Origin: an uncultured delta proteobacterium
GTDB taxonomy: Bacteria > Desulfobacterota > Binatia > Binatales > Binataceae
Length of the DNA: 64,000 bases
Reading direction: 5' to 3'
Assembly (NCBI GenBank): GCA_963788205.1
Contig: CAWBGG010000007.1
Location: forward strand, 378,732-442,731
The first letter of the stretch is position 1, and each line of letters begins with the position of its first letter. The notes under the pieces are model-generated. The model saw only the letters and a program-made list of their open reading frames with translations, did not search any database and was not told where the DNA came from. Shown here in pieces: positions 11,413 through 44,174 of the stretch. Position numbers and translations under genes: made by a program.

Positions 11413-12501
11413 TTAGGTCCGGTTGCGGCTGTGGGCGAGGAGTTGGCGGAGTTTGGCCGGATTGATGGGCTTTTTGAAGATCGCGCCTTCCAGGCCCTGC
11501 ATCCGGCTGCGTTTGATGATGTGGTCCTTGTCGTAGTAGTAGGCGGTCATCAGGATTACCGGCAGTTCGGGCAGCTCTTCCTTGACCTTGGTGTAGAAGT
11601 CGTAACCGTCCATCTCGGGCATCACCACGTCCGAGATCACCGCGTCGATTTTCATGTTGCGCAGCACTCCCAGCGCGGTGCTCGGGAGCGTGGCGGTATG
11701 CACGACGCACTGTTCCGCGCGCAGCAGGTCGGCCAGTGAAGTGACCACCGAGACGTCGTCGTCGAGCACCAGCACCGCCATCCCGCGCAACGGCCAATCG
11801 CCATGCGGGCGATCGTCGTCATGCTGCCCGGCTTGCGGGGCGGGCTCGCGCGGCGCCAGGTCGGTCATCTTTTTTCCCGCCAGATAGTCGCGGGTCTGAT
11901 AAACGCCCTTGCGCGACATCTCGTCCAGCCGCTGCACGATCGCCTGCACGCGCCGGATCGCGGTCCGGATCGAGTCCAGGCGCTCGCTTTCAGCTGCGAA
12001 GTCAGCCTGGCTGAAATGGGCCTCCAGCGAGCGGGTCAACAGTTCCAGGTTGTTGGTAATCGATTCGAGCGGGTTGTTGATCTCATGCGCGAGGCTCACG
12101 GCGATCTCGCCGGCGGTGGCCAGCTGCTCGCGCAGCCGCATCCGGCGCATGTCGCGCGCGAAACCGATCGAGCCGATTTCGATTCCCTGCTCGTCGCGGA
12201 TCAGCGAGCCCGAGATCGCAACCGGTATCATCTCACCGGTCTTGCTGCGAAATGTGGTCTCGAAGCTCGAGATTCGCCCGGCGTCTTTCGACTCGCGCAT
12301 CGCCTTCATCACCCGGCGCGCTTCCTCGACCGACGGATAGATGCGGGCGAGGTTCTCGCCGATCATCTCCGCGGAGCTGTAGCCGAGGTTCTGGCGCGCG
12401 CCGTCGTTGTAGTAGACCACGATACCCTGGCGATCGACCGCGATAACGATATCCGGCGAGCTTTCGATCAGCCGTTGCAGGTATTTTTCGTCGAGTGACA
12501 T
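11413..12501 (-). CDS. PAS-HisKA-receiver hybrid signalling protein lacking a recognisable HATPase domain
   Basis: N-terminal PAS. H-box SLAHEINNPL. C-terminal REC with LVLDDD, DVVMPEMDG, ILMTAY and KKP motifs. No N/G1/G2 ATP-binding boxes were seen. Confidence 0.7.
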   Translation of the reverse strand: MSLDEKYLQRLIESSPDIVIAVDRQGIVVYYNDGARQNLGYSSAEMIGENLARIYPSVEEARRVMKAMRESKDAGRISSFETTFRSKTGEMIPVAISGSLIRDEQGIEIGSIGFARDMRRMRLREQLATAGEIAVSLAHEINNPLESITNNLELLTRSLEAHFSQADFAAESERLDSIRTAIRRVQAIVQRLDEMSRKGVYQTRDYLAGKKMTDLAPREPAPQAGQHDDDRPHGDWPLRGMAVLVLDDDVSVVTSLADLLRAEQCVVHTATLPSTALGVLRNMKIDAVISDVVMPEMDGYDFYTKVKEELPELPVILMTAYYYDKDHIIKRSRMQGLEGAIFKKPINPAKLRQLLAHSRNRT

Positions 12502-13055: not shown

Positions 13056-14228
13056 CTAGTTACTTGAACCGAGAATCAGCGTGGAATGGGTCGCGAGGAT
13101 TCCGCCATTGCCCGATACCAGGCCGAGTTCGTGCCGGGGCGCCTGGCGCGCTCCGGCCTCGCCGCGCACTTGCGTGACCGCCTCGCCGATCGGCGTCATC
13201 CCCCACATGTAGAACGAGCTGAGTTGGCCGCCACCGGTATTGACCGGCAACGAACCGCCGGGCCCCAGCCGTCCGCCGGCGACGAAAGCGCCGCCTTCGC
13301 CCTTACGGCAGAACCCGTAGTCCTCGAGCGTCACCAGCACGGTAAAGGTGTAGCAATCGTACAGCTCGGCGAAGCCGATGTCTTCGAGCTCGACGCCCGC
13401 CATCTTGAACGCGGTCTGCTTGGCGATCGGCGCGCCCGACGTGAGCGTTTCGAGCGGGTCGCCGCCGGGGTGTCCCTGTCCCATGCCGAGCACGTAGACC
13501 GGTGGTTTCTTCAAGTCGCGCGCGCGTTCGGCGGAGGTGACGATCAGGCAGAGCCCGCCGTTGGATACCAGGCAGCAATCATATAGATGAAACGGCTCAA
13601 CCACCCATCGCGAGGTGTGATAGTCGTCCATCGACATCGGCTGCCCGTACATCTGGGCCTGCGGATTCAGATTGGCCCATGCGCGCTGCGCGGTCGCGAT
13701 CGCGCCCAGATGGTCGTTGCTGGTGCCATAGAGATACATGTGGCGGCGCGCGACGAAGGCGTAAGTCGCGTTCACGCCGAACAGCCCGTAGGCCGATTCG
13801 AGCGCGCGCCCGAACCCGTAGGCGGCAGCTGAGCCACCGGAGCCTTTGGCGGACTTCGGCGCGGGTGGCTTCAGCGGGGCGTCGGCGAACACGCACGCCA
13901 CCACGTCAGCCATCCCGGCCGCGATCGATTGCACCGCATGCATCACCATCGCGGCCGCGGTGGCCCCGCCGAGGTTCATGCTCGCGGTCAGGCGCAGGTT
14001 GCGCAGCCCCATCGCCTGCTGCACGTCGAACGAGGCCATCGGATTGCCCATCCAGGTAATTCCCGGATTCACCAGCATCCCGTCGAGGTCGGAACGCGTC
14101 AGCCCCGCGTCTTCAAGGGCAAGCTGCACGGCCTCGATCGCAAAGCCGAGCGCATGCGAGTGCTCGTAATTCTTGCCCATCCGGGTCGCCCCCAGACCGG
14201 CAATCGCACATTTTCCCCGAAGATCCAT
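13056..14228 (-). CDS. thiolase-like lipid-transfer protein (SCP-x-type thiolase)
   Basis: 390 aa thiolase fold. The catalytic Cys region is replaced as in SCP-x/Ltp-type enzymes. Paired with DUF35. Confidence 0.8.
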   Translation of the reverse strand: MDLRGKCAIAGLGATRMGKNYEHSHALGFAIEAVQLALEDAGLTRSDLDGMLVNPGITWMGNPMASFDVQQAMGLRNLRLTASMNLGGATAAAMVMHAVQSIAAGMADVVACVFADAPLKPPAPKSAKGSGGSAAAYGFGRALESAYGLFGVNATYAFVARRHMYLYGTSNDHLGAIATAQRAWANLNPQAQMYGQPMSMDDYHTSRWVVEPFHLYDCCLVSNGGLCLIVTSAERARDLKKPPVYVLGMGQGHPGGDPLETLTSGAPIAKQTAFKMAGVELEDIGFAELYDCYTFTVLVTLEDYGFCRKGEGGAFVAGGRLGPGGSLPVNTGGGQLSSFYMWGMTPIGEAVTQVRGEAGARQAPRHELGLVSGNGGILATHSTLILGSSN

Positions 14229-14460
14229 CGGCTGCTATCGATCATAGCCCAAGCAGCCGGAGGGTCACAGAGCGAGCACCGTCCTGCGGTTGGAAACGAT
14301 TTCACGTGGCGATGGCCTCGGTCTAATCCCAGTTAGCAAGGCCCAGCCGTCTGGCATCGAAACCGATGCCTGGTTCGAGCGTATCAACGTGCGCCCTTGC
14401 CCTGCCTCGGTTGCCAAGGCCTGAATCTTGCCCTTAAAATAGACGGATGGGAGATCGCCG

Positions 14461-15768
14461 ATGGCCGGAGCGTTGACCTTCGAGGCGCTGGTAAGCCGCG
14501 ACTACGTGCTTTCCAGCGCTGAAAACTTCGTTCTGTATGTTTTGTTTGAAGCGATCTCCGGCGGACGAAGCGGGGCGGCGGGCAGCCGACTGCCGCTCAA
14601 CCTCGGCGTGGTGCTCGATCGCTCGGGCTCGATGTACGACGAGCGGCGGCTGGAGTTCGTGGTCGAGGCGGTCAAGTTCCTGGTCGATAACCTCGCGCCC
14701 GATGACAAGATGGCGATTGTCGCGTTCGCCGACAAAGCGCAAGTGCTCGCGCCGTCCAACGCCGGTCACGACAAAGCGGCGCTCAAGCGCGCGATCGACG
14801 ACATCGATCTGCTCGATATCGGCGGCGGCACGAAGATGGCGCTCGGGATGAGCGCAGCGATCGACGAGGTCAAGAAGAACCTTGCTCCCGATCGGCTCAA
14901 CCGCGTGCTGGTCCTGACCGACGGCCAGACTTACGAAGAGATGGCCTGCGTCGAGCTGGTCAACCAGAACCGCGGGCCGCTGTCGTTCTCCGCGATGGGC
15001 GTGGGCGTGGAGTTCAACGAAAAGCTCCTGATGCGAATCGCGCAGGACTCCAACGGCAAATATCATTTCATCGGCGATGCGGCCGAGATTCCCGGCATCT
15101 TCGACGACGAGCTGCAAGGCCTGCGCGCGGTATCGGCGCGCAATGGCCGGATCGAGGTGACGCTCGCACAGGGCGTCCAGATTCGCGAGGCGTTTCGCGC
15201 CAGCCCCGATATCTATGCGCTCGGCTCGCCGCTGCTGACCGAGGATCGCAAGGTGGCCTATTCGGTCGGCGATCTCGAAGCCACCGTTCCTGCGTCGGTG
15301 CTGCTGACGCTGGTGCTGCCGCCGCGCAAGCCCGGCCTGGTCAGGATCGGTCAAAGCGCGTTCCATTACGAAGAGCCGGGCGCGGGCGAGCGATCGATCG
15401 AGACCGAGGTCACGGTTGAGTACACGCTCGATCGGGCGCTGGCGAGCAAAGTCAACGGCCGCGTGATGAACCTGGTCGATCAGGTTTCGATCGCCAAGCT
15501 CCAGGCCAAGGCCGAAGAGGAGCTCAAGCTGGGCAACATCGATCGCGCTACGCGGCTGCTCGGCAATGCGATCCAGGGCACGCAGCGGCTGGGCAACGTG
15601 AAAGCGACCCAGGCCTTGTCGGGACTCGTGGAGCAGATCAAGAAAACCCAGACCCTGCAAACCAAGGCGGCCAAAACCACCCTGTTGCAAGCGCAGGCAG
15701 TGGTGCGGAAGACCCAGATGCTCGATCCGGCGGCTCTGGAGGCGCTCAGAGATGAGAAGTCGGAATAG
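14461..15768 (+). CDS. von Willebrand factor A (vWA) domain protein with C-terminal coiled coil
   Basis: MIDAS motif DRSGSM...T...D (LVLTDGQ) and a typical vWA beta-alpha pattern. Long helical C-terminus. Confidence 0.8.
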   Translation: MAGALTFEALVSRDYVLSSAENFVLYVLFEAISGGRSGAAGSRLPLNLGVVLDRSGSMYDERRLEFVVEAVKFLVDNLAPDDKMAIVAFADKAQVLAPSNAGHDKAALKRAIDDIDLLDIGGGTKMALGMSAAIDEVKKNLAPDRLNRVLVLTDGQTYEEMACVELVNQNRGPLSFSAMGVGVEFNEKLLMRIAQDSNGKYHFIGDAAEIPGIFDDELQGLRAVSARNGRIEVTLAQGVQIREAFRASPDIYALGSPLLTEDRKVAYSVGDLEATVPASVLLTLVLPPRKPGLVRIGQSAFHYEEPGAGERSIETEVTVEYTLDRALASKVNGRVMNLVDQVSIAKLQAKAEEELKLGNIDRATRLLGNAIQGTQRLGNVKATQALSGLVEQIKKTQTLQTKAAKTTLLQAQAVVRKTQMLDPAALEALRDEKSE

Positions 15769-15831
15769 TTTCAGAATAGCAAATGTTTGCCGAAGACGCG
15801 GCCGGCTGATGGGCCGGCTGGTTGGGGGCTG

Positions 15832-16461
15832 ATGACGATGATCAAATGTGGTGAATGCGGCTACGAGAACATGGACGGCTTGGATTACTGCGACGGATGC
15901 GGCGCCAAAATAACCGCGGCGGCCCCTTCGGGCGACGGCGCGATCGCGCCGGCCGCTGAGGCACCGCCCACGGAACCGGCTGCGCCGAGCGCCTCCGATG
16001 CGCCCACCGGCGAAATAAAGCCTCCGCCCGAGCCTGCGCCTGCCGCCGAAGGCGCCGCGCCGCCTCCGGAAGCGCCGCCGCCTACACCGGCCGCTCCTCC
16101 GCCTGCCGGGGCGGTGCCGCAATTCAAGGCCAAGTTCGAGGTCACGCGCGGCGGCCGCAAGGGCCAGGAATTTCCGCTCGAAGACGGCAACAACTTCATC
16201 GGCCGATGGGACCCGGAGACCGGCTCGTTCCCTGAAGTCGACCTCGAGCAGGATGATCCCGAGGCCAAAATTTCGCGCAAGCACGCCCTGGTTAGAATCG
16301 AGAACGGCAAAATCACGGTCGAGGACATCGGCAGCCTCAACGGAACCTACGTCAACCGCCAGCCGCGCCTGCAGCCGGGATCGCCGGTCGAGATCAAAAC
16401 GGGCGACGAGATTATCATCGGTAAGACTTTCTTGAAGCTGGTGGTCGAACCCATTTCGTAG
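15832..16461 (+). CDS. zinc-ribbon - Pro/Ala-rich linker - FHA domain protein
   Basis: CGECGY...CDGCG ribbon. FHA signature FIGRWD...ISRKHALV...DIGSLNGTYVN. Confidence 0.75.
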   Translation: MTMIKCGECGYENMDGLDYCDGCGAKITAAAPSGDGAIAPAAEAPPTEPAAPSASDAPTGEIKPPPEPAPAAEGAAPPPEAPPPTPAAPPPAGAVPQFKAKFEVTRGGRKGQEFPLEDGNNFIGRWDPETGSFPEVDLEQDDPEAKISRKHALVRIENGKITVEDIGSLNGTYVNRQPRLQPGSPVEIKTGDEIIIGKTFLKLVVEPIS

Positions 16462-16540
16462 CGCGCCGGCTTCGACGGCCGGCCACGGCCGTTGGCCGCG
16501 AGGCCGCATCTTCGATGCGCCCGGCTGAAAATCTGAATTC

Positions 16541-18295
16541 GTGATGAAACCGGGTGACCCCGTACCCGCCGGCCATCTGCTCGACGGCCGATACCGCGTT
16601 AACAAGGTAATCGGCCAGGGCGGCATGGGGCGCGTCTATATGGCCAACGACACTCGTCTGGCCAACCGTCCGGTCGCCGTCAAGGAGATGATCGTCGATG
16701 CCGGCGGCGAGCAGGAAAAAAAGGCCATCGAGGACTTCCAGCGTGAGGCGAGCGTGCTCGCCGCGTTGACGCATCCCGGCATCCCCAATCTCTTCGACAA
16801 TTTCATCGAGAACGGCCGCCATTACCTGGTGATGGAGTTCGTTGCGGGCGGAGATCTTCAGGCGATGCTCGACCAGCTGGGCCCGCGCGCGCGTATCGAG
16901 GAAGCGCGGGTGCTCCGCTGGGCACGCCAGATTCTCGACGTGCTGGTCTTTCTGCACGCGCAGAAGCCGCCGATTATCTATCGCGACTTCAAGCCCGGCA
17001 ACATCATGATCGACCGGCACGGGCGCGCGATGCTGATCGACTTCGGAATCGCGCGCTTTCTGCCGCCCGGCGGGCGCGGCACTCAAATCGGATCGATCGG
17101 CTACGCGCCCCCCGAGCAATACATGGGCAAGGCGGAGCCGCGCTCGGACCTCTACTCGCTGGCGGCCACGATGCATCATCTGCTCACCGGGCGCGATCCG
17201 CAGTTGGAGCCGCCGTTCAGCTTTCCGCCCGCGCGCCAGCTTGCACCCGAGCTCTCGCCCGCTACGGAGCGGGTGATAATGAGCGCGCTGGATAAAGACG
17301 CCGCCAAGCGCCCGGCCTCCGCCAAAGAGATGCTCGATCGGCTGCCGGTCCCGCCGCCAGCCGAAGAGGAAGCCCCGACATTAGTTGGCGCGCCGATGCG
17401 AGCGGCGCCCTCGATCGCGGTGATGCCGACGATTGCGCTCTCCAGGCCCGTGGCCGCCGCCCCGGCGACGCCGGCGCCGCGTGCGCCGGCACCGGCGAGC
17501 GTGTCGTCCGCGTCCTCGATGCCGACCATCGTCCTGACGAATCCAGTTTCGGTCGCGGCGGCACCTGCGCCCGAGCCGGCCACGCCGATGTCGACCGCGC
17601 TCGAAAAGATCGCGGGACTCAAGCGCCTGGCGCGCTTCGCCACTCCGCGCATCCTCAAAACCCCGCCGGTGCGCACCGAGCCTTCTTCATCGCGAGCGCG
17701 CGTTTCATCGACCGCCAAAACCCAGGAGCTCAAGGGCAGCGGCGCCAAAGCCACGCCCTTGCACTCCCGCAGCGCGGCCAATTCCGCGTCATCGCCGCGC
17801 CATCCGAAGCGAGGCTCGGCGCCGCACACCCCCAGCTCGTCGAAGCCGGCTAGCGCACCGTCGAAGCCGGCCGCGGCGGTCAAAAAGGCCAGCGCGGCGA
17901 CGCCGCGAGCGCTCCCGCCGTTGCCGGTCGCGGCCAACGGCAAATCCGGTAAATCCGGTGCGGCGCTCGACGGACCTCGGCTGGTATGCAAGGCGGAGCA
18001 GGCCGAGTTTGGGCTCTGCGGTGAGCGAATCGTGATCGGCCGGGTGGCGGCATCGGCCGACGGCGCCGATATCGATCTCGACTTGTCCTCGCTCAAGCGC
18101 AGCGGCGAGCGAATTTCGCGCCGCCATGCCGAGATAATCCGGCTCGGCAAGGACTACTTCATCCGGGACCTGGGCAGCCTCAACGGGACTTTCATCGCGG
18201 GACGCGGCCGGCTGGGACGCGATCAACTCTACAAATTGAATGACCGCGACGAAGTCTTGCTGGGCGGCGCCAGGTTGGAGTTCCGCAAGGGATGA
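16541..18295 (+). CDS. Ser/Thr protein kinase with C-terminal FHA domain
   Basis: Kinase motifs GQGGMGRVY, VAVKEM, IYRDFKPGN (YRD instead of HRD), DFG, APE. C-terminal FHA with ISRRHAEI...DLGSLNGTF. Probable GTG start. Confidence 0.8.
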   Translation: MMKPGDPVPAGHLLDGRYRVNKVIGQGGMGRVYMANDTRLANRPVAVKEMIVDAGGEQEKKAIEDFQREASVLAALTHPGIPNLFDNFIENGRHYLVMEFVAGGDLQAMLDQLGPRARIEEARVLRWARQILDVLVFLHAQKPPIIYRDFKPGNIMIDRHGRAMLIDFGIARFLPPGGRGTQIGSIGYAPPEQYMGKAEPRSDLYSLAATMHHLLTGRDPQLEPPFSFPPARQLAPELSPATERVIMSALDKDAAKRPASAKEMLDRLPVPPPAEEEAPTLVGAPMRAAPSIAVMPTIALSRPVAAAPATPAPRAPAPASVSSASSMPTIVLTNPVSVAAAPAPEPATPMSTALEKIAGLKRLARFATPRILKTPPVRTEPSSSRARVSSTAKTQELKGSGAKATPLHSRSAANSASSPRHPKRGSAPHTPSSSKPASAPSKPAAAVKKASAATPRALPPLPVAANGKSGKSGAALDGPRLVCKAEQAEFGLCGERIVIGRVAASADGADIDLDLSSLKRSGERISRRHAEIIRLGKDYFIRDLGSLNGTFIAGRGRLGRDQLYKLNDRDEVLLGGARLEFRKG

Positions 18296-18345
18296 GCGCA
18301 AGGGCTATGATCGAAAAGGAAAGCCTACTTGGGAAGCCTATTTGA

Positions 18346-20385
18346 ATGATCACTTGTCCTGAATGCGGCTTCGCGGCCGGTGACGAAGCGAAATTCTGCG
18401 ACCGATGCGGCCAGGGACTGACTCGCGCCGCTGCGCGGCCGCCGTCGCTGCCGCCGCTCAGCCCCGGCGCCACACTCAAGGGCGGCTTCCAGATCGTCGA
18501 GTTGCTCGGCGCTAACTCCGCCGAGAATCGGTACCGTGCGACGCGCAGCGTGGACGGCGAGAACCAATCGTTCCAGCTTCGCGAGCGAATGGGGCCGGCC
18601 ACCGACCCGGAAGCGCACGAGGAGACGCCCGAGGCCGCGACCGCGAGCATTGCGGATAGAGCGGCATCGAGCACCGCGGATGATCCGAGCGGGCCGCGCG
18701 CCAAAACGCGTGATCTCAAGCCGTCCGCAGCCGCGCCGGCACCGTCGCGAGCCGAACCGGTCGCGCCCCCGTCGGTCGATTCGGAGCTGCATAGCGCCGA
18801 GGCTCCGTTGGGTTCGCCCGAGGTCGATGACGGATCGGGTGCCGAGCCGATCGTCCTGATCGAGACGGTAGCCGAAGGCGCCGCAGACGGTGCGAACCCG
18901 GCGCAAGACGCGCCCGCCGATCCGACCGGCGCGGATTCGTCTGTGGCCTCGGAGCCCCCACCGCCGGACGATCTCGGTGACGTCTTCGGCCGCGTGCTCT
19001 CGCTTTCGCAGACGATTAAGCATCCGGCGTTCCAATGCGCGCTTTCCGGATTCGCCCAGGATGGGCGCGTCTACCTGGTGTATCGCGACGAGAGTCCGCC
19101 ACCGCTCGCGGCGCGAGCCGGCGGTCTGCGGATGAGCGAGCCCGAAGCTATCGGGCTTGCGATCCAGGTGTGCCAGGCGGTCTCGGCGCTCCATCGGCGG
19201 GGCCTGCGGGTCAACGACATCTGCCCGCAATCGATCGTCATCGCGCCCGACGGCCGCGTGAAGCTCACCGGCCTGGATTACGTAAGCAACGACACCGAGC
19301 TGCAGTCCGACCCGATTTTCAACGACGGTTACACCGCGCCCGAAATCTACAAGGGCAGGCGGGCCGACAAGCGCGCCAACGTCTTTTCGGTCGGCGCGTT
19401 GCTTTACACCTGCCTGACGGGCGAGCGTATCGAGGCCGAAAGCTGGCTCGAAGAGGCGGGCGCGTTGAACTTCTACCCGCCGCATGTGGTCTCGCCCGCC
19501 CTCGAACAGGTGATTCGCCGGGCGCTGGCCTTCAATCCCGGCGAGCGATGGCCCACCGCCGACGCGCTCAAGACCGAGTTCATCAAGCTCGGCAGCACGA
19601 TCACGATTCGCGCCGCAGCCCTGACCGACGTGGGCCTAGTACGCGAACTGAACGAAGACGCGGTGATGGCGCTCCAGTACTCGCGGCAATCCCAGATCGA
19701 GCCGGCCGAAAGCTATCTCTACCTGGTAGCCGACGGGATGGGTGGGGCGGAGGCGGGCGAAGTCGCAAGTGCAATTGCCGTAAGAGCGATCCGGGAATAT
19801 GTTGAGAGCAAGCTCGCAGCCGAGGAAACCGCCGGCCCTTCCAGAGGAACCGCTGATCTTTGCGGACTGCTCAAGGACGCTCTCGAAGAAGCCAATCGCA
19901 GGATCCTCGATCATCAGGCGGCGAACCCGGAATTGCGCGGTATGGGATCGACCGCAGTCAGCGCATTGATTCTGCCGCCCGAGGCGGCCGTGGCCTGGGT
20001 CGGCGACAGCCGCGCCTACCTGAGCGACGCTGCGGGTATCCGCCAACTCACCAAGGACCATTCGCTGGTGCAGCGCCTGATCGAGATCGGACAGTTGACC
20101 CCGGAACAGGGGCGCAGCCACGAGCACAAGAACGTGATCACGCGATCGCTCGGCGCGCGGCAGAGCGGACCGGCCGGCGCCGAAGCCATCGCGATTCGGC
20201 TCAAGCGCGGCGACCGGATGGTGCTGTGCAGTGACGGCTTGACCACCCATGTCGAGGACCATCCGATCGGCGAAATCGTGCGCCGCCACAATGATCCTTA
20301 TGGGGCGGCACGTGAGCTGATAGTGGCCGCCAACGCCGGCGGCGGGACCGACAACATTTCAGTGGTAGTAATTTACGCCGAGTAG
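18346..20385 (+). CDS. zinc-ribbon - pseudokinase-like domain - PP2C Ser/Thr phosphatase fusion
   Basis: CPECGF...CDRCG ribbon. The kinase-like fold lacks the Gly loop and VAIK, and has LRVNDICPQS and LDY in place of HRDLKPxN and DFG. PP2C motifs LVADGMGG, GSTAV, VGDSRAY, SDGL, GGTDNISVVV are present. Confidence 0.75.
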   Translation: MITCPECGFAAGDEAKFCDRCGQGLTRAAARPPSLPPLSPGATLKGGFQIVELLGANSAENRYRATRSVDGENQSFQLRERMGPATDPEAHEETPEAATASIADRAASSTADDPSGPRAKTRDLKPSAAAPAPSRAEPVAPPSVDSELHSAEAPLGSPEVDDGSGAEPIVLIETVAEGAADGANPAQDAPADPTGADSSVASEPPPPDDLGDVFGRVLSLSQTIKHPAFQCALSGFAQDGRVYLVYRDESPPPLAARAGGLRMSEPEAIGLAIQVCQAVSALHRRGLRVNDICPQSIVIAPDGRVKLTGLDYVSNDTELQSDPIFNDGYTAPEIYKGRRADKRANVFSVGALLYTCLTGERIEAESWLEEAGALNFYPPHVVSPALEQVIRRALAFNPGERWPTADALKTEFIKLGSTITIRAAALTDVGLVRELNEDAVMALQYSRQSQIEPAESYLYLVADGMGGAEAGEVASAIAVRAIREYVESKLAAEETAGPSRGTADLCGLLKDALEEANRRILDHQAANPELRGMGSTAVSALILPPEAAVAWVGDSRAYLSDAAGIRQLTKDHSLVQRLIEIGQLTPEQGRSHEHKNVITRSLGARQSGPAGAEAIAIRLKRGDRMVLCSDGLTTHVEDHPIGEIVRRHNDPYGAARELIVAANAGGGTDNISVVVIYAE

Positions 20386-20412
20386 GCGTCAATAGCTGGT
20401 AGAATAATTGCG

Positions 20413-22764
20413 ATGACGAGCCAGCCGCCCAACAATCCCGATTCCGCCGCCACGGCGCCGCTGGCCGCCGGGGTCGTCCTTCAGAATCGCTACCTGATCG
20501 AGCGCCTGATCGGCGGTGGCGGAATGGGGATGGTCTATCTGGCGCGCGACCAGCGCTTGTCCAACCGGCCCTGCGCGATCAAGGAGATGGTCGATCACTT
20601 CATCGACCCGCAACAGCGCCTGGAAGCCAACGAATATTTCGCCCGCGAAGCCGACACCCTCGCCCAACTGAAGCATCCCGCGATTCCGGCGATCACCGAC
20701 CGCTTCGACGATCAGAACCGCCATTACCTGGTGATGGAGTACGTCGAGGGGCGCAACCTCGAGGAGGAGATCGCGGTCAACGGCGGTCCGTTCGCCGAGG
20801 GACTCGTGATCGACATCGGGCGCCAGTTGTGCGACGTGCTCGCCTACCTGCACAGCTTCACGCCGCCGGTCGTGTACCGCGACATGAAGCCCTCCAACGT
20901 GATGCTGACGCCCAAGGGACGGGTCGTGCTGATCGATTTCGGCATCGCGCGGCTGTTCCGCGCCGCGCGCAAGGGCACGATGATCGGCACGCTGGGCTTC
21001 GCGCCGCCCGAGCAATACCAGGGGATGGTCGATCCGCGCAGCGATATCTACTCGCTGGCGGCAACGCTGCACTACATCCTGACCGGGCGTGACCCGGAGA
21101 AGTTCCCGCCCTTCAGCTTTCCGCCGGTGCGCGAGTTGCGTCCCGAGGTCTCGGGCAACCTGGCCGGCTCGCTCGACATGGCGCTGGCCTACAAGCCCGA
21201 AGATCGCCCGCAAGCGGTTCAGGAATTCCGCGACATGATGCTCTACGGGCGCGGCGTGGCGGCCACCGGGCGCGTCAGCTCCAAGAGCGGCACCGCCGGA
21301 ATCGCGCCCCCGCCAGTCCCGGACGAAGACCTCATCCCGATCCGGCCGCGGTCCCGGAACACCTTCGCCAACGCCGCAAAGATGGCAGTGGTGCTGCTGA
21401 TGCTGGGGACGGTCGCGTTCGGCGCCACGTATATTTATTCGAGTCCGGCCCTGCAGATGCAGCTCGGGATCAAGCCGCTGATCGACAAGCTGCCGTGGCG
21501 TCACGAAGAATTGCTCGCCGCGGCCCGCGACCATCCACTCGAGTTCGCCCGCATGACCCTCCAGCTCTCGACGCGCGAGGGCGCGCCGCTGTCGCCGCCC
21601 AAGGCCTCTTTCACCGACGCGGAGCTTTCCGACGCGCGCTACCTGAAATGGGACGCGACCTTCACCAACCATCTTTCGGGGCTCGAGGGACGCTCCGACA
21701 AGGTCGAGGCGCGCTTCTTCGATCCCAGCGGACTGCAAGTCGCTTCCACCAACGTCGAGCGCTTCGTCGGCCCCGACGAGAAAACCATAGACTTCAGCGG
21801 CGTCGCGCTGGTGCCCGATCTCTCCGATCGCCCGCGCGGCGATTACAAGGTGAATCTCTCGCTGGGCGATCAGAGCCTGGCCGAGCAGCGCTTCTCGATC
21901 ACCGAAGATCTGGCGAGCAAGGCCAGGGCCGCGGCGGCCAAGGCGGCACGCGAAGCCGCGGCGCGCGAGGATCAGGAGAAACGCCTGGCGGCCGAGCACC
22001 GGCTGGCGATGATCGAGGAGCGCAAACAGAAGCCGCTGCAACTGGTCGATATCCACTTCGTCAACAGCACCAAAACCGGCACGCCGCTCTCCAGCCCGGC
22101 CGACAATTTCGACCCCGCCAAGGTGCTGTTTGTCGACTGGGAGGTCAGCTTCCAGAACCGGCTCTATAAGCTCGACAACAATCAGTACCGGGTCAACGCC
22201 GCCTACGTGGCGCCGGACGGACGCACGCTGGGCAGCGTCTACGACACCCGGATGGTTCCGGAATCGCTGCGCGAAGTCACGTTCAGCGGACGGGTCGGCA
22301 ACTCCAGCGGCGGAGCCTTCATTCCCGGCACCTACACTGTGACGTTTTATCTAAACGGCCAGTATCTGGCGGAGCGGAAGTTCCGCGTCGGTTCAGCCGA
22401 GGCGCTCAACGGCGGCGAAACCACCAGCATGGTGTCGCCCGGCGCCGCGGCGATCAGCCTCGACTCGCCGACGCTGGCCAGCGGCAATATCAGCGGGCTG
22501 GCCGGCAAGAGCAGCATCCCGATCGAGCTCCGGCTGAGACCCCAGCCCAACGGCTTTCTGCACGGCGAGCTGGTAATTCACGAAACCGGTTACGGACTCA
22601 CGCCCATCGAAGGCTATATCCGCGGCACCCATCTCTCGTTCCAGGTCCCCTATCGCGGCGAGACCCTCTACTTCGAAGGCGAGCAGAGCGGCGCCGGCCT
22701 GCAGGGAACCTTCGAGGGCGCCCCGTCAGGCGAACACGGCACCTGGACCGCCCGCCCGTCGTGA
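20413..22764 (+). CDS. membrane-anchored Ser/Thr protein kinase with large extracytoplasmic C-terminal domain
   Basis: GGGGMGMVY, CAIKEM, VYRDMKPSN, DFG, APE. One predicted TM segment (MAVVLLMLGTVAFGATYIY) followed by about 450 aa of non-cytoplasmic sequence. Confidence 0.8.
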   Translation: MTSQPPNNPDSAATAPLAAGVVLQNRYLIERLIGGGGMGMVYLARDQRLSNRPCAIKEMVDHFIDPQQRLEANEYFAREADTLAQLKHPAIPAITDRFDDQNRHYLVMEYVEGRNLEEEIAVNGGPFAEGLVIDIGRQLCDVLAYLHSFTPPVVYRDMKPSNVMLTPKGRVVLIDFGIARLFRAARKGTMIGTLGFAPPEQYQGMVDPRSDIYSLAATLHYILTGRDPEKFPPFSFPPVRELRPEVSGNLAGSLDMALAYKPEDRPQAVQEFRDMMLYGRGVAATGRVSSKSGTAGIAPPPVPDEDLIPIRPRSRNTFANAAKMAVVLLMLGTVAFGATYIYSSPALQMQLGIKPLIDKLPWRHEELLAAARDHPLEFARMTLQLSTREGAPLSPPKASFTDAELSDARYLKWDATFTNHLSGLEGRSDKVEARFFDPSGLQVASTNVERFVGPDEKTIDFSGVALVPDLSDRPRGDYKVNLSLGDQSLAEQRFSITEDLASKARAAAAKAAREAAAREDQEKRLAAEHRLAMIEERKQKPLQLVDIHFVNSTKTGTPLSSPADNFDPAKVLFVDWEVSFQNRLYKLDNNQYRVNAAYVAPDGRTLGSVYDTRMVPESLREVTFSGRVGNSSGGAFIPGTYTVTFYLNGQYLAERKFRVGSAEALNGGETTSMVSPGAAAISLDSPTLASGNISGLAGKSSIPIELRLRPQPNGFLHGELVIHETGYGLTPIEGYIRGTHLSFQVPYRGETLYFEGEQSGAGLQGTFEGAPSGEHGTWTARPS

Positions 22765-22856: not shown

Positions 22857-22982
22857 TAGTAGCGCCGGCGTCCCGCCGGTGATTTGTCCAACTACCTGAC
22901 CCGCAGCCGACCGATGGCCCGCGATGCCCGTCGCGGTCTTCATTGGGGCCGAGTGAATCACCGGCGGGACGCCGGCGCTACT
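22857..22982. repeat. 28-bp near-perfect inverted repeat pair flanking about 66 bp
   Basis: tagtagcgccggcgtcccgccggtgattt ... aatcaccggcgggacgccggcgctacta. Lies in a 520-bp intergenic region. Confidence 0.7.
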
Positions 22983-23286: not shown

Positions 23287-24237
23287 CTAGCTTCGCCGCA
23301 CCAGCGGGATCACTTCGCGGGCGAAGCGCTCGAGCATCGCGTCGCGTTCCTCGTACGGGCCGATCATATCGATCAGGAACTCGCGCGCTCCGGATTTGCG
23401 GAAGTCGGCGATCTTGGCCGCCACGTCAGCCGGCGTGCCGAGCGCGGCGTAGCGGCGCGCCGCCTCGCGAAAGTCCATCGCGTAACGGCGGCTCAAGTGC
23501 TCGGTGGAGACCTCCAGCGCGGACTCGAAGCTCGATCCCATTGTGCAGAAGATGAACAGGGCGGTGGCGAAGCGCTCGATTTTGCGGCCGGCGCGCTGCG
23601 CCTCCGCGCCGATAAAGTCGAGCCCCTGGGCGAAGCGCTGGGGCGTGACGACATAGGGAATCCATCCGTCGCCAAGACGCGCCGCGCGCTTGAGCGCCGC
23701 GTCGGCGCGTCCGCCGATCCAGATCGGTGGGCCGCCGGGCGTGAGCGGCTTGGGCTGCATGCTGATTTCGCCGAAGCTGAAGTATTTTCCGTGATGCGCC
23801 ACGCGCGGCTCGGTCCACAGCCGCCGGATGACCTCGATCGCCTCGTTGGTGCGCCCGCCGCGCTGCTTGAGCGGAATTCCGCAGGCCTCGTATTCGGGCG
23901 GGAATTCGCCGCCGACTCCGACGCCGAAGATGAAACGGCCGGCACCGAGCAGCCGATCGAGCGTCGCAACCATCTTGGCGACGATCGTCGGATGGCGCAG
24001 CGGCAGCAGATATACGCTGGTGCCGAAGGTCAGCCGGGGCTCGATCGCGCCCCAGAATGCGATCTCTGTGAGCGGATCGATGATCGGGCCGGTGAAAGCG
24101 ACGTGATCGCCGGTGAAGACCGAATCGTAACCCATCGCGGCGACCGCCTGTACCGCGCGGCGCGCCTGCTCACCGTCGAGTGCGCCGCTGATCACGCCGA
24201 AGCGGAGATCGTTCGCGAGCGGCAACGCGTCGCTCAT
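23287..24237 (-). CDS. LLM-class (luciferase-like) flavin/F420-dependent oxidoreductase
   Basis: TIM-barrel LLM pattern: FGVISGALDG, GYDSVFTGDH, GAGRFIFGVGVG. Confidence 0.75.
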   Translation of the reverse strand: MSDALPLANDLRFGVISGALDGEQARRAVQAVAAMGYDSVFTGDHVAFTGPIIDPLTEIAFWGAIEPRLTFGTSVYLLPLRHPTIVAKMVATLDRLLGAGRFIFGVGVGGEFPPEYEACGIPLKQRGGRTNEAIEVIRRLWTEPRVAHHGKYFSFGEISMQPKPLTPGGPPIWIGGRADAALKRAARLGDGWIPYVVTPQRFAQGLDFIGAEAQRAGRKIERFATALFIFCTMGSSFESALEVSTEHLSRRYAMDFREAARRYAALGTPADVAAKIADFRKSGAREFLIDMIGPYEERDAMLERFAREVIPLVRRS

Positions 24238-24278: not shown

Positions 24279-25160
24279 CTACTTCTTTCCCGCCGCGCGG
24301 CGGCGTTCACCGCCGGAGCGCGCGGCTCGCGCATGCGCCTTGGCCGCGGACTGCTGCTCGGCCTGCTGCGTTTCGGGCGCGGCCACGCCGCGCTTGTCGA
24401 GCGAAGCCTTCAGCGCGGCCATCAGATCGATTACCTGGCCGCGGCGCGGCTCGGCCGGCGTGCCGACGGCCTGCTGGCCCGCGACCTTCTGCTGCGCTGC
24501 TTCGAGCACCCGTTCGCGATAGCTGTCGCGATATTGGGAAGGGTCGAACTTGTCGTGGGTCAGCTCGTCGATCAGCCGTTTCGCCAAGGCCAGCTCCGCT
24601 TCCTTGGCCGCCTCGTTCGCAGCGCGATCGACTTCCTCGACCGGCTTGACCTCGTCGGCATAGTAGACCGTATGGAGCATCAGGCCCTTGGCATAGGGGC
24701 GGATCAGGATCAGATGTTCCTTGCCGCGCAGCGTGTATTTCCCAAGCGCAACACGCTTGCTCGACATCATCGCGTCGCAGAGCAGGCGGTAGGCTTTGCC
24801 CGCTCCCGGCTCGGCGCCCAGATAGTACGAATCCTCGAAGTAGATCGGATCGACCGCCGACAGCGGTACGAACTCGGTTATTTCGATCGCGTGGTCGTCG
24901 CGCGCTTCGAGGTTCTTGAGTTCCTCATCGGTGAAGGTGACGTAGCGGCCCTTCTCGATCTCGTAGCCCCGGACCAGCTCGCTGCGATCGATGATCGCGT
25001 CGTCCACGGGGCAGTAGATTTTCTGCTGGATACGGCTTAGGTCCTTGGCATGCAGCAGGTTGAAGCTCACCGACTTGGCAGAGGTCGCGCCGAACAACCT
25101 GACCGGGATGGAAACCAGACCGAAGGAAATATTGCCACTGCTGACGGGCCGTGCTGCCAT
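24279..25160 (-). CDS. ku: Ku protein (NHEJ)
   Basis: ISFGLVSIPVRLF N-terminus and Ku core, with a basic C-terminal tail. Confidence 0.85.
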   Translation of the reverse strand: MAARPVSSGNISFGLVSIPVRLFGATSAKSVSFNLLHAKDLSRIQQKIYCPVDDAIIDRSELVRGYEIEKGRYVTFTDEELKNLEARDDHAIEITEFVPLSAVDPIYFEDSYYLGAEPGAGKAYRLLCDAMMSSKRVALGKYTLRGKEHLILIRPYAKGLMLHTVYYADEVKPVEEVDRAANEAAKEAELALAKRLIDELTHDKFDPSQYRDSYRERVLEAAQQKVAGQQAVGTPAEPRRGQVIDLMAALKASLDKRGVAAPETQQAEQQSAAKAHARAARSGGERRRAAGKK

Positions 25161-39603: not shown

Positions 39604-39850
39604 CTAGTACGCTATTAGTTCAAAATGGAAATTCCGGCTTAATGGCGCAATTGCCGTCCAGCGATGCGACACTGACGCAAGGGGGTGGATTTTGCGCTAT
39701 GGCTGCTGTACTTCCCCAGCAACGCCATTCCAAAGGCACCCGCGAGTGCGAAAAGAAGATAACTCCGTCTCAACGCTGCCTCCCCATATTGTATCCGGGA
39801 TTTCCGTTTTGACACCTCGGATTAAGATGATAATTAGTACAGGTTCCCCT

Positions 39851-40801
39851 ATGAAAGTTACCATGGACCGAAAATGTTGGGGTTTCACGCCTCCCGGCGT
39901 CAAAGCATGCTGCAGGCAGTGGTTTTGCCTATTAGTTGTCGCAGGGTTTCTAACTGGCTGTGCGTCAACCGGCACGTCAGCGTATCGCAACCCTAACTTT
40001 GACCAGAGCAAATCTTACCGGGTAGCAGTTTTCCCATTCCGCGATGCGCCTCAAGCTCCCGGAAGTGGCGATGCGCTGTCAACCATATTTGAAGGTACGC
40101 TTTTGGCAAGTGGTGGAAGGTTCGAACTGGTTGACCGTGGAGAAATAGAGCGGATTTTGCGCGAGCACCATGCGGGTGTCAATGGGATGGGGGCCGGTGT
40201 CGGCGGGGATCGTCCGGATTATGTACAAGAATTTGAGGATCCGGTTGGAGTCGGTAAACTACTCCGGGTTGACCTTGTTGTTGTGGGTACGGTAACAAAA
40301 TGGCAGGACTTGCCAGGCAGACCCTCGGTCGCAGCTTTAGTCAAAGCGGTTAGCGTAGAAAAAGGGGTTGTTGTTTGGTCTCTGGATCAGTTTACGGATG
40401 ATGCGCCTCATAACCCCGTGGATTTTGTGGCTTCCAAGCTTTGCCGCCAAATGATCGCCACGTTGGTGGGAAAGAATCCGATCGCCTTGTGGCATACGAA
40501 ATCCGAAGGCGCGGAGCTGGAGCTTGGTTCAACAAACACGCTGGTGTATCGTAACCCCAACTTTGACCAAAGCAAATCGTACCGGGTAGCAGTTTTCCCA
40601 TTTCACGACGCGCCTCAAGCCCCCGGAAGTGGAGATAGGCTGTCAAGCATATTTGAAAGTACACTTTTGGCCAGCAGTGGAAACTTCGAAGTCGTTGAGC
40701 GTGAAGAAACAGAGCGGAGTTTGCGCGAGCGCCATCCGGATGTCAATGGGATGGGGGGCCGGTGCCGGAGGGGATCATCCGGATTATCGACAAGAAGTTG
40801 A
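39851..40801 (+). CDS. CsgG/LpoB-like lipoprotein, copy 1, fused in frame to a signal-less partial copy 2 that then frameshifts
   Basis: Lipobox FLTGCAS. Core YRNPNFDQSKSYRVAVFPF(R/H)DAPQAPGSG...IFE.TLLAS.G.FE.V.R.E.ER.LRE. After copy 1 the frame runs through ...IALWHTKSEGAELELGSTNTLVYRNPNFDQ... into a second core with no stop, then goes out of frame at a run of 6 g (5 g in copies 1 and 3). Confidence 0.6.
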   Translation: MKVTMDRKCWGFTPPGVKACCRQWFCLLVVAGFLTGCASTGTSAYRNPNFDQSKSYRVAVFPFRDAPQAPGSGDALSTIFEGTLLASGGRFELVDRGEIERILREHHAGVNGMGAGVGGDRPDYVQEFEDPVGVGKLLRVDLVVVGTVTKWQDLPGRPSVAALVKAVSVEKGVVVWSLDQFTDDAPHNPVDFVASKLCRQMIATLVGKNPIALWHTKSEGAELELGSTNTLVYRNPNFDQSKSYRVAVFPFHDAPQAPGSGDRLSSIFESTLLASSGNFEVVEREETERSLRERHPDVNGMGGRCRRGSSGLSTRS

Positions 40802-41048
40802 GGATCCAGTTGCTGTCGGTAAACTTCTCCGGGTTGACCTTGTTATCGTGGGCACGGTAACAAACTGGACTCAACGTCAGGCATTCGGATCCTCGGTCGG
40901 AGCTTCTGTCAAAGCGGTTAGTGTAGAAAAAGGGGTCGTTGTGTGGTCTTTGGTTAAGTCTACGGAACACCATTACGCGATCAACGTCGTGGCTCGCAAG
41001 CTTTGCAGCCAAATGATCGCGGCATTGGTGGGTAAGAATCCGAATTAG
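40629..41048 (+). pseudogene. out-of-frame C-terminal remainder of lipoprotein copy 2
   Basis: This frame encodes GAGGDHPDYRQEVEDPVAVGKLLRVDLVIVGTVTNW...ARKLCSQMIAALVGKNPN, homologous to the C-terminal halves of copies 1 and 3. Confidence 0.6.
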
Positions 41049-41060
41049 AACTGTTCCCCT

Positions 41061-41705
41061 ATGGAGGCTACCATGCACCGAAAGTGTTGGGGCTTCGGGC
41101 CTGCCAGCGTCAGAGCATTCTGCAAGCAGTGTCTTTGCCTATTGGTAATCACAGGGTTTCTAACTGGCTGTGCGTCAACCGGCACGTTGGTGTATCGCAA
41201 CCCTAACTTTGACCAAAGCAAATCTTACCGGGTAGCAGTTTTCCCATTCCACGATGCGCCTCAATCCCCCGGAAGTGGAAATGCGCTATCAACCATATTT
41301 GAAAGTACACTTTTGGCGAGCGGTGGAAAGTTCGAAGTGGTTGAGCGTGGAGAAATAGAACGGATTTTGCGTGAGCGCCATCCGGATGTCAATGGGATGG
41401 GGGCCAGTGTCGGCAGGGATTCTGGACAAGAATTCGAGGATCCGGTTGCGGTCGGTAAGCTTCTCCGGGTTGACCTTGTTATTGTGGGCACGGTAACAAA
41501 CTGGACTCAAGGTGTGCAAGCAGGCTGGGCTACTTTTTCCACTACCGCGGTCGGAGCTTCTGTCAAAGCGGTTAGTGTGGAAAAAGGGGTTATTGTTTGG
41601 TCTTTGGATCAGTCTGCACAGCCTGCTTGGGTCCTTACCGGGCCGGTGGATGCTGTGGCTCGCAAGCTTTGCCGCCAAATGGTCGCGACATTTGTGGGAG
41701 AGTAA
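41061..41705 (+). CDS. CsgG/LpoB-like lipoprotein, copy 3 (intact)
   Basis: 214 aa. Same leader (ttcccctatg...ccatg), lipobox and core as copy 1. Upstream sequence is also duplicated. Confidence 0.7.
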   Translation: MEATMHRKCWGFGPASVRAFCKQCLCLLVITGFLTGCASTGTLVYRNPNFDQSKSYRVAVFPFHDAPQSPGSGNALSTIFESTLLASGGKFEVVERGEIERILRERHPDVNGMGASVGRDSGQEFEDPVAVGKLLRVDLVIVGTVTNWTQGVQAGWATFSTTAVGASVKAVSVEKGVIVWSLDQSAQPAWVLTGPVDAVARKLCRQMVATFVGE

Positions 41706-41957: not shown

Positions 41958-41973
41958 GCGGGAGAGGAACGTC

Positions 41974-44163: not shown

Positions 44164-44174
44164 GGAAGAATCGC

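Follow-up and report, generated by a model that had tools for sequence, protein, structure and literature searches.

The stretch of DNA considered here (hereafter, the window) comprises 64,000 nucleotides from an uncultured delta proteobacterium of the family Binataceae (GenBank assembly GCA_963788205.1, contig CAWBGG010000007.1, positions 378,732 to 442,731 of the forward strand). Positions 14461 to 22764 of the window are occupied by five genes, referred to as genes 1 to 5, that encode a vWA protein, FHA domains, Hanks-type kinases and a PP2C phosphatase. The list of open reading frames (ORFs) of the window includes all five on the plus strand (14461-15768, 15787-16461, 16541-18295, 18346-20385 and 20413-22764), coding for proteins of 435, 224 (counted from a TTG), 584, 679 and 783 amino acids (aa), with intergenic gaps of 18, 79, 50 and 27 bp. 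The second ORF mechanically begins at TTG 15787; because the conservation of gene 2 in 45 orthologues begins at ATG 15838 (MIKCxECGYEN), the true gap between genes 1 and 2 is probably 69 bp and not 18 bp. With this start, the co-directional arrangement and the gaps of 27-79 bp that were given in a preliminary description of the locus are borne out. Pfam searches confirm the domain assignments made there (a vWA protein, a zinc-ribbon-FHA protein, a kinase-FHA fusion, a zinc-ribbon-pseudokinase-PP2C fusion and a membrane kinase), and these assignments support its view of the genes as writers, eraser and readers of phosphothreonine. The genes, in window coordinates, are the following.

14461..15768, plus strand: gene 1, ArnB-like putative hub protein of 435 aa (Pfam VWA, 68 bits; PDB matches to ArnB).
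15838..16461, plus strand: gene 2, ArnA-like putative reader of 207 aa (conserved ATG; Pfam FHA, 54 bits; PDB match to ArnA).
16541..18295, plus strand: gene 3, soluble kinase of the Hanks type with FHA at its C-terminus (Pfam Pkinase, 133 bits; FHA, 50.5 bits).
18346..20385, plus strand: gene 4, putative eraser of 679 aa (Pfam zinc ribbon, partial Pkinase and PP2C, the latter with 67 bits).
20413..22764, plus strand: gene 5, receptor-type Hanks kinase of 783 aa (Pfam Pkinase, 127 bits).

The product of gene 1 consists of N-terminal beta-strands, a vWA domain, a beta-sandwich and a C-terminal helical, threonine-rich region. The MIDAS (metal ion-dependent adhesion site) of the vWA domain is intact (D53, S55, S57, T124 and D154), and its residues are invariant across lineages in a 12-sequence cross-phylum alignment. 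The protein is apparently cytoplasmic, with no transmembrane (TM) segment or signal peptide (by eye). In phmmer searches of PDB, it matches an ArnB-like vWA protein of Catenulispora (4fx5_A, E=2.4e-13, query residues 32-403) and the archaeal protein ArnB (8s05_A, E=3.6e-12, query residues 50-401). When a profile of 12 gene 1-related sequences from several phyla is used instead, ArnB is the top match in PDB (E=1.1e-29) and is covered in two stretches, the first of which corresponds to the vWA domain and the second extends from the beta-sandwich to the end of the helical bundle (chain residues 245-381, individual E=0.0056).

Gene 2 encodes a zinc ribbon with the CxxC-x10-CxxC spacing (a weak Pfam match), a linker rich in Pro and Ala that contains a conserved TGEI, and a canonical FHA domain, with the GR, SxxH and NG motifs (by eye) located within an FHA region that is strongly conserved in the 45 orthologues. 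With a query starting at ATG 15832, phmmer matches it to ArnA in PDB (5a8i_A and 8s05_C, E ~1e-11); the match is collinear across the zinc finger, the linker and the FHA domain (query residues 5-182 against chain residues 4-180). The ribbon alone also has the ArnA zinc finger as its best PDB match, and the spacing of the cysteines is identical.

The structure 8S05 is the ArnA-ArnB complex of Sulfolobus acidocaldarius, in which ArnB consists of a beta-sandwich, interrupted by a MIDAS-containing vWA domain, and a C-terminal regulatory helical bundle, and the zinc finger of ArnA binds loosely at the junction of the sandwich and the bundle (PMC12852372). Several bundle threonines are substrates of the Hanks kinase ArnC, which phosphorylates T353, T363 and T375 first, within 5 min (PMC12852372); the FHA domain of ArnA then binds the phosphorylated ArnB tightly, and PP2A reverses the process (PMC12852372; PMC6509490). 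Genes 1 and 2 resemble this pair (Saci_1210/Saci_1211; PDB 8S05, 5A8I and 5A8J) in that the two genes are adjacent and both proteins are homologous, the gene 1 protein likewise being built of a split beta-sandwich, a MIDAS-bearing vWA domain and a helical C-terminus rich in threonine, and the Sulfolobus network likewise employs Hanks-type kinases, ArnC and ArnD, as writers. As judged from these comparisons, the operon fairly probably encodes a self-contained phospho-threonine switch of the ArnA/ArnB type. The basis for this interpretation is fourfold: the homologies, the intact or dead catalytic motifs, the conservation of short motifs, and the strict co-conservation of the genes.

The C-terminal region of gene 1 is where such a switch would be thrown:

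15550..15723, plus strand: tail of gene 1 (aa 364-421), predicted multi-site phospho-acceptor and FHA docking region with six TxxL/M sites.

The classic pattern of FHA ligands is pT-x-x-(L/I/V), and the Hanks kinases of mycobacteria prefer a threonine with a large hydrophobic residue at position +3. The six sites in the tail (T364, T374, T383, T396, T406 and T418) include KKTQTL, AKTTLL and RKTQML. Six of the nine threonines of the tail are in the TxxL/M form, compared with 2.1 expected (shuffle p=0.004), whereas only one of the 11 threonines outside the tail is. The last 75 residues, aa 394-423 included, are mostly invariant among 21 Binatota sequences, and 9 of 11 homologues, drawn for this test from Methylomirabilota, Chloroflexota, Deinococcus, cyanobacteria and a deltaproteobacterium, show the TxxL/M enrichment in the tail at p<0.05. 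Within the 12-sequence cross-phylum alignment, T418 does not vary, and it aligns with residue T377 of the ArnB chain, that is, T375 in the UniProt numbering (the offset of +2 is set by the LIETT and SIETT motifs), so that an invariant threonine of the gene 1 tail coincides with an ArnB phosphosite. The target of the operon, which the preliminary description considered not obvious, is thus not wholly obscure: judging from its sequence, the conserved threonine-rich tail of gene 1 itself is most likely the substrate.

The three remaining genes supply the candidate writers and eraser. The product of gene 3 comprises a kinase domain (aa 11-270), a disordered linker of ~200 aa and an FHA domain (aa 497-575). 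In an alignment of the three kinase-like domains of the operon, genes 3 and 5 retain the Gly-rich loop, VA(V/I)K, the alphaC glutamate, YRD..N and DFG, the gene 3 motifs being of the YRD type (VAVKE, YRDFKPGN and DFG). Gene 5 encodes a kinase domain (aa 20-280), a single hydrophobic TM-like segment (aa ~322-345) and an extracytoplasmic region (aa 346-783); K57, E79, D157, N162 and D175, the activation-loop residues T189 and T193, and the juxtamembrane T294, which lies in a conserved SGTAG(I/L), are invariant. Beyond the kinase domain, the gene 5 protein has no Pfam match above the cut-off (only sub-threshold matches at E up to 5). At the level of the fold, the extracytoplasmic region resembles two Ig/FnIII-like beta-sandwiches, a long helix and an eight-stranded avidin-like barrel, folds that fit sensing of a ligand or a surface. 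At the sequence level, this region yields 548 matches, all of them relatives, the named members of which belong to Binataceae.

The product of gene 4 combines an ArnA-type zinc ribbon (aa 4-21), a kinase-like domain (aa ~41-417) that is split by a disordered insert of ~130 aa between strand beta3 and helix alphaC, and a PP2C domain (aa 423-677). The Pfam Pkinase match is partial, covering profile positions 56-263 only, and the catalytic motifs are degenerate: GANSAENRY is found instead of the Gly-rich loop, FQLRE instead of VAIK, VND..S instead of HRD..N and GLD instead of DFG, APE being retained. These degenerate motifs are invariant in 25 homologues, as are the four cysteines of the ribbon and the PP2C residues D438, D463, D554, D630 and D669. 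On these grounds, the kinase domain can be classified as a pseudokinase, in agreement with the preliminary description, and the PP2C domain is active-looking; the invariance of the degenerate motifs themselves argues for a conserved, functional pseudokinase attached to an active-looking phosphatase. The best PDB matches of aa 423-676 are phosphatase chains of the tPphA type (5d2u and 2j82), followed by PstP, PppA and Stp1. A 679-aa entry that is 100% identical to the gene 4 product (P0001) is present in the protein collection.

The fusion of a pseudokinase with PP2C, which had been considered an unusual architecture, is common according to sequence searches. A search of 1.84 billion cluster representatives retrieves many such fusions with 28-42% identity to gene 4, and they also occur in metagenome-assembled genomes (MAGs) labelled Chloroflexota, Sericytochromatia, Acidobacteriota and Methylomirabilota. 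In the 23 distant fusions examined, the Gly loop and the catalytic loop are degenerate, and so is DFG in most of them; APE is kept in 20 of the 23, and an N-terminal zinc ribbon is likewise present in 20 of the 23. PP2C-kinase fusions were described as a class in 2005, with D. radiodurans among those listed (PMC1262709); no explicit description of bacterial fusions of a pseudokinase with PP2C was found in literature searches.

The kinases and the phosphatase also bring up the alternative of a growth or envelope regulator similar to PknB/PstP/FhaA/FhaB, which would control division or wall synthesis, with the vWA protein as a passive scaffold. The NCBIfam models for PknB-type kinases score 203 and 185 bits, that for Stp1/IreP 228.8 bits and that for FhaB/FipA 47 bits, and the juxtamembrane threonine of gene 5 is conserved; further, two cyanobacterial plasmid loci contain serine-hydrolase and ARC6/PARC6-family genes a few kb upstream, within a larger vWA-containing cluster. 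All of these NCBIfam scores, however, are below the curated cut-offs, including that of gene 4 for Stp1/IreP (NF033484, cut-off 230), and the zinc ribbon and the pseudokinase of gene 4 lie outside the definition of that family. There are no PASTA repeats and no ftsW, rodA or pbp genes nearby, and it is the vWA hub, not the kinases, that is the most conserved protein (see below). Such a regulator is therefore an unlikely explanation for the operon as a whole, and growth control of the PknB/PstP kind is possible as a partial role.

Two further occurrences of the tail motif are found in the disordered parts of genes 3 and 4:

17714..17731, plus strand: AKTQEL, short linear motif in the linker of gene 3 (aa 392-397), delineated by conservation in orthologues.
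18700..18717, plus strand: AKTRDL, short linear motif in the insert of gene 4 (aa 119-124), conserved in homologues.

In the gene 3 linker, the motif SST-AKT-x-(D/E)-L is kept in 46 of 51 orthologues despite the variability of the surrounding sequence. The gene 4 insert contains GPR-AKT-x-x-L-K in 77 of 78 orthologues, and P117, A119, K120, T121 and L124 are invariant in the 25 homologues, the rest of the insert being unalignable. The general form [A/K/R/S]-K-T-x-x-[L/M] occurs three times in the gene 1 tail (41 of 41 orthologues) and is missing from genes 2 and 5; it reaches a density of 1.85 per 1000 aa, compared with 0.15 in the six-frame ORFs of the window. We infer from these patterns that the hub, the soluble kinase and the phosphatase may all bear FHA docking sites that are written by the same kinases. 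The presence of KTxxL in a kinase linker and a phosphatase insert is not a general feature of the family, given that, outside the Binatota-type loci, only the vWA tail keeps the motif.

A gene-neighbourhood comparison, which had been suggested in the preliminary description, was performed on 80 metagenome loci identified with gene 4 and two long contigs, L001 and L002, in which gene 4 is 59-62% identical and the five-gene order is kept. In tblastn searches of these 82 loci, each neighbour lies on the expected side and strand in all cases in which the contig is long enough to contain it: gene 3 in 54 of 54 (always immediately upstream of gene 4), gene 2 in 45 of 45, gene 5 in 43 of 43 and gene 1 in 39 of 39, with genes 1 and 2 adjacent in all 39. 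All five genes are present in order in 38 loci, and there is no counter-example down to a gene 4 identity of 55%. The best segments have median identities of 78% (gene 1), 63% (gene 2), 55% (gene 3), 58% (gene 4) and 65% (gene 5), and therefore the vWA protein is the most constrained component. Close homologues of genes 1, 4 and 5 with taxonomic names are labelled Candidatus Binatales or Binataceae, with one labelled Stellaceae, which assigns the window to an uncultured bacterium of the Binatota.

Hanks kinase genes are abundant in the genome, with two more in the window at 41974-46106, and their chance juxtaposition with unrelated vWA and FHA genes might be considered. This explanation is refuted by the co-conservation of the five genes: order and orientation are kept in every informative locus, and the core pair recurs across phyla together with a PP2C and a kinase, which leaves chance with a practically negligible probability.

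The conservation extends beyond the operon. The chromosomal synteny includes a lactonase, a PAS-HisKA-REC protein, (an OB-fold protein and a thiolase), the operon, (a membrane FHA protein and a lipoprotein), Ku and LigD. Together with the 76-90% identity of gene 1 to the listed Binatota homologues, this conservation points to vertical inheritance and purifying selection.

The same observations bear on the possibility that the operon is a triad like TerY-P, that is, a stress or anti-phage defence switch made up of vWA, PP2C and kinase proteins. TerY-P is defined by a TerY-like vWA protein, a PP2C and a kinase that has a zinc ribbon or OB fold at its C-terminus (PMC11090510). The three domain types are the same, gene 1 narrowly exceeds the cut-off of the Pfam vWA-TerF-like model (PF10138, 29.6 against 29.4 bits), and the kinases of the operon match the PADLOC kinase models PD-T4-6 and mad6. 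However, the generic VWA model scores far higher on gene 1 (68 bits), the kinase matches are generic, and PADLOC has no match for the vWA protein, the FHA protein or the PP2C domain of gene 4. Neither kinase has a C-terminal zinc ribbon or OB fold, the C-terminal part being an FHA domain in gene 3 and the TM-like segment with the sensor region in gene 5; no effector gene is present; and the stable synteny with a highly conserved vWA protein is unlike a mobile, diversifying defence island. Membership in TerY-P is rejected on account of the generic PADLOC matches, the wrong kinase architecture and the stable synteny, and a TerY-P-like function is accordingly very unlikely.

The preliminary description referred to the module as complete, which does not hold when it is compared with the relatives. 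In 32 of the 37 related loci with room, gene 5 is followed by a gene for a multi-TM protein with a C-terminal FHA domain (e.g. L002:14718-16388), and, in 31 loci in all, a gene for a lipoprotein of ~258 aa is found, beside the membrane FHA gene in the loci listed. The lipoprotein belongs to no known family and has only sub-threshold Pfam matches at E up to 5. Both genes are absent from this window and from L001. Given that most of the relatives have them, the ancestral unit probably consisted of seven genes.

This gene pair is also pertinent to the proposal of a threonine-phosphorylation pathway of the PpkA/PppA/Fha type, as in the type VI secretion system (T6SS), or of the YscD type, that would gate an envelope-spanning secretion or surface machine. 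In its favour, the FHA domains weakly match TagH (36 bits) and the Yop-YscD cytoplasmic domain (39 bits), the gene 5 kinase spans the membrane and has an extracytoplasmic domain, CsgG-like lipoproteins and two kinases are encoded 17-23 kb away in the window, and the membrane FHA protein and lipoprotein directly downstream in most of the relatives keep an envelope-linked output open. Against this, the TagH score is far below the cut-off of the model (TIGR03354, 120 bits), and the membrane FHA and lipoprotein genes are missing from the window. The vWA domain is here a separate protein that, by eye, lacks a TM segment and a signal peptide, whereas in PpkA it is a periplasmic domain of the kinase, and genes 1 and 2 find their best structural relatives in ArnB and ArnA. 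Furthermore, no core genes of T6SS or the type III secretion system are found among the flanking ORFs scanned, a scan that covered part of the window and was not exhaustive over its whole length; the absence of T6SS and ter genes nearby that had been noted previously is upheld in the same set, where the ORFs code for catabolic, PAS/REC, Ku/LigD, CsgG-like, protease-like and kinase proteins or have no Pfam match. Control of a secretion machine is thus quite unlikely. What the operon shares with TerY-P and the T6SS PpkA/PppA/Fha pathway, the comparators named in the preliminary description, is the general logic of a Hanks kinase, a PP2C, and a vWA and/or FHA domain, so that both are analogies only.

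By sequence, the closest known systems are the ArnA/ArnB switch and the DRA0331-0334 operon of Deinococcus radiodurans, rather than the T6SS pathway or TerY-P; both had been missed in the preliminary description. The Deinococcus operon consists of DRA0331 (vWA), DRA0332 (kinase), DRA0333 (a FraH-like FHA protein) and DRA0334 (PP2C); experiments are reported in which DRA0334 has Mn-dependent phosphatase activity and in which the FHA protein and the phosphatase act antagonistically on kinases such as RqkA (bioRxiv 10.64898/2026.01.23.701218). In BLASTP comparisons, DRA0331 aligns with residues 13-421 of gene 1 (28% identity, E=3e-29), DRA0334 with residues 263-676 of gene 4 (32%, E=3e-39), i.e. 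the C-lobe of the pseudokinase with APE and the PP2C domain, and DRA0332 with gene 3 (36%), and DRA0333 contains the ribbon and the FHA domain. Thus, the two clusters share a vWA protein with KTxxL/I sites in the tail (SKTISL, AKTLKI and AKTQTL in DRA0331), a zinc-ribbon-FHA protein, a Hanks kinase and a PP2C with a kinase-like N-terminal region. They differ in gene order (vWA, kinase, FHA and PP2C in Deinococcus), in the lack of a kinase-FHA fusion in Deinococcus, and in the location of the zinc ribbon, which there is found on the kinases, whereas the N-terminus of the phosphatase is disordered.

Two details of the Deinococcus locus can be amended by this comparison. Residues 210-368 of DRA0334 (L163:11910-13760), denoted 'KI-FHA' in the preprint, can be aligned with the gene 4 pseudokinase over its C-lobe, the APE motif (GLTAPEV) included, and therefore DRA0334 looks like a pseudokinase-PP2C fusion and not an FHA-PP2C fusion. 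The gene directly downstream, L163:13801-16764, is annotated only as 'right-handed parallel beta-helix repeat-containing protein'; its product contains a zinc ribbon, a full Hanks kinase (Pkinase, 137 bits), a TM segment, an SH3b domain and a beta-helix. The combination of a kinase, a TM segment and an extracellular domain makes it a counterpart of gene 5, with a sensor of SH3b and beta-helix in Deinococcus versus the Ig-like domains and avidin-like barrel of gene 5. The sensor with two Ig-like domains and an avidin-like barrel is a Binatota-specific feature, and so is the KTxxL motif shared by three proteins.

Related cassettes are found in other phyla. Species-representative genomes were scanned with a profile of nine distant pseudokinase-PP2C fusions, an alignment of 23 sequences having been too divergent; the first sequence of the profile, which was used for the confirmation step, is closest to Chloroflexota. 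Of the 80 loci returned, most are from Chloroflexota and about two thirds match the PP2C part only; the others are labelled Sericytochromatia, Acidobacteriota (Blastocatellia), Poribacteria, a deltaproteobacterium, Methylomirabilota and Gemmatimonadota, among others. The recurrent arrangement is kinase ... PP2C, vWA, FHA, with a vWA protein that, in tblastn comparisons, is 30-37% identical to gene 1 over most of its length. An FHA ORF follows the gene 1-like vWA gene within 2.5 kb in 34 of the 40 loci of other phyla with room, 32 of these 34 FHA ORFs have a CxxC-x(8-14)-CxxC ribbon, and matches to PP2C and kinase are present in most of these loci. In one MAG labelled Methylomirabilota (L071), there is a four-gene version without gene 3, in which the vWA and FHA proteins are 60% and 63% identical to those of genes 1 and 2, and which contains a pseudokinase-PP2C and a gene 5-like kinase with a sensor region that is 32% identical.

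The cassettes of Chloroflexota and cyanobacteria thus resemble the operon in having a gene 1-like vWA gene followed by a zinc-ribbon-FHA gene, with PP2C and Hanks kinase genes close by, and differ from it in the gene order and in that some copies reside on plasmids and in larger clusters; no functional characterisation was found in the literature searched. FraH of Anabaena is a related zinc-ribbon-FHA protein. On a Gloeothece plasmid, vWA, FHA, PP2C, FHA-kinase and kinase genes lie in a row. On the plasmids of Gloeothece and Trichormus (L164:1-15068 and L165:1-11952), the vWA, FHA and PP2C genes end a larger cluster that includes two more vWA genes, an ARC6/PARC6-family gene and a serine hydrolase; hence the cassette also exists in a mobile, expanded version.

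In the scheme proposed here for the ArnA/ArnB-type switch, who phosphorylates whom, the binding of the tail by FHA, the docking partners of the zinc ribbons, the signal and the downstream target are all inferred. Gene 5 would be the input: as a membrane-bound Hanks kinase, it would perceive an extracytoplasmic cue through the part exposed outside the cytoplasm and, with gene 3, phosphorylate the gene 1 tail at multiple sites. Gene 3 would be recruited to primed phosphothreonines by its own FHA domain and so spread or amplify the phosphorylation. Gene 1 would be the hub and the main substrate, to which the zinc ribbon of gene 2 would be tethered loosely until its FHA domain clamps the phosphorylated tail; the output would be this loose-to-tight switch of the gene 1-gene 2 complex, which might act on a partner, possibly via the MIDAS face. 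Gene 4 would reset the switch as an active PP2C that is targeted by its ArnA-type ribbon and its dead kinase domain, both serving as docking modules, and the conserved AKTxxL in the disordered insert might allow its recruitment through FHA as well. If Sulfolobus and Deinococcus are a guide, the target is probably a response to stress, starvation or DNA damage that is reached indirectly, and not a secretion machine.

Several points weigh against the ArnA/ArnB-type interpretation. The C-terminal half of gene 1 has no Pfam match even at E up to 5, and the support for homology is modest for the helical bundle taken by itself (18.8 bits). The spacing of the TxxL sites could stem in part from the periodicity of an amphipathic helix rather than from a kinase or FHA motif. 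The eraser is PP2A in Sulfolobus and PP2C here, the Sulfolobus kinases are encoded outside the operon, and the output there is the archaellum, which does not exist in bacteria. The pair of membrane FHA and lipoprotein genes in the relatives is a hint of an envelope-linked output that a model of the ArnAB type leaves unexplained.

The operon also departs from the archaeal system in being bacterial and not crenarchaeal, in including the kinases and the phosphatase, and in that one kinase has its own FHA domain and the other is a membrane receptor. With a PP2C eraser and a bacterial host, it is therefore ArnAB-like in its working and not a member of the arn network itself: a bacterial variant of the known ArnA/ArnB mechanism and a relative of the Deinococcus operon, which is already being studied, not a new kind of system.

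A broader proposition, which is rather doubtful at present, would be that the ArnB-like hub represents an ancient phospho-switch, shared by Crenarchaeota and several bacterial phyla, with the ribbon as a common docking tag, and that the Binatota version couples a periplasmic sensor of a small ligand to a cytoplasmic stress or DNA-damage response. The CxxC-x10-CxxC ribbon may dock the reader, the eraser and, in the case of Deinococcus, also the writers on one and the same surface of the hub, for which the reader and the eraser would then compete. The ArnA/ArnB pair of S. islandicus represses DNA-damage-response genes (PMC10470591); this effect, the conservation of Ku-LigD downstream of the operon and the action of the Deinococcus phosphatase on the radiation-response kinase RqkA fit a coupling to DNA damage.

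The comparison ties a widespread bacterial cassette of vWA, zinc-ribbon-FHA, Hanks kinase and PP2C proteins to ArnA/ArnB, the sole such system with a structurally detailed mechanism, and the homology yields testable predictions on the substrate and its threonines, the reader domain, and the roles of the zinc ribbons and the dead kinase. It suggests that the ArnAB switch is not an archaeal peculiarity. In the 2026 structural paper on ArnAB, bacterial ArnB-like architectures were noted and deemed mostly not phosphorylation-dependent (PMC12852372), a view against which the gene neighbourhoods argue for many bacteria. The Deinococcus preprint merely alludes to the archaeal ArnAB work (10.64898/2026.01.23.701218), and literature searches for an ArnAB-like operon in bacteria found no explicit description. 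What is new here is that the bacterial cassette is explicitly linked to ArnAB by homology, that the 'KI-FHA' region of DRA0334 is identified as a pseudokinase, and that reader and eraser have the ribbon in common, together with the shared KTxxL motif and the avidin-like sensor. The practical payoff is modest, Binatota being uncultured.

Signals flanking the operon, which are pattern matches only, fit a single transcription unit:

14411..14440, plus strand: promoter-like site TTGCCA-18 nt spacer-TAAAAT (consensus scan, 10 of 12 matches).
22919..22936, plus strand: weak terminator-like hairpin (pattern scan), 155 bp past the stop codon of gene 5.

The promoter-like site is 20 bp before the ATG of gene 1, inside a divergent intergenic region of 232 bp, and the sole other plus-strand match of the consensus scan within the operon is weaker (9 of 12) and lies in gene 5. 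The hairpin is considered weak since terminator-like sites in this region show no enrichment over shuffled sequences. Scans of the window with Rfam models and for tRNAs gave no matches.

Next after gene 5 is a luciferase-like monooxygenase gene on the minus strand (23287-24237), followed by genes for Ku (24279-25160, minus strand) and a full LigD with phosphoesterase, ligase and primase-polymerase domains (25285-27900, plus strand). Five related loci also have Ku downstream, four of them together with LigD. The proximity of Ku and LigD is intriguing given the DNA-damage ties of the ArnA/ArnB pair from S. islandicus and of the Deinococcus operon; it may instead be plain synteny. Upstream of the operon, on the minus strand (11413-12501), a PAS-HisKA-REC protein with no recognisable HATPase domain is encoded, and its gene is retained upstream in 24 related loci, with ~70% identity.

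Farther away, the G+C content dips at 40-42 kb of the window (54.5% compared with ~63%), with a positive GC skew, and the dip coincides with two CsgG-like ORFs (39692-40801 and 41061-41705). These are followed by the two further Hanks kinase genes, one with a TPR region (41974-44163) and the other with a zinc-ribbon-like UPF0547 motif (44133-46106), so that the region 39692-46106 looks like a second cluster of kinase and envelope genes. Finally, tblastn detects a second thiolase-like match at 54827-55609, which is 38% identical to the thiolase at 13056-14228 and is adjoined by a match to the OB-fold protein at 55685-56040, in two reading frames (55685-55861 and 55855-56040).

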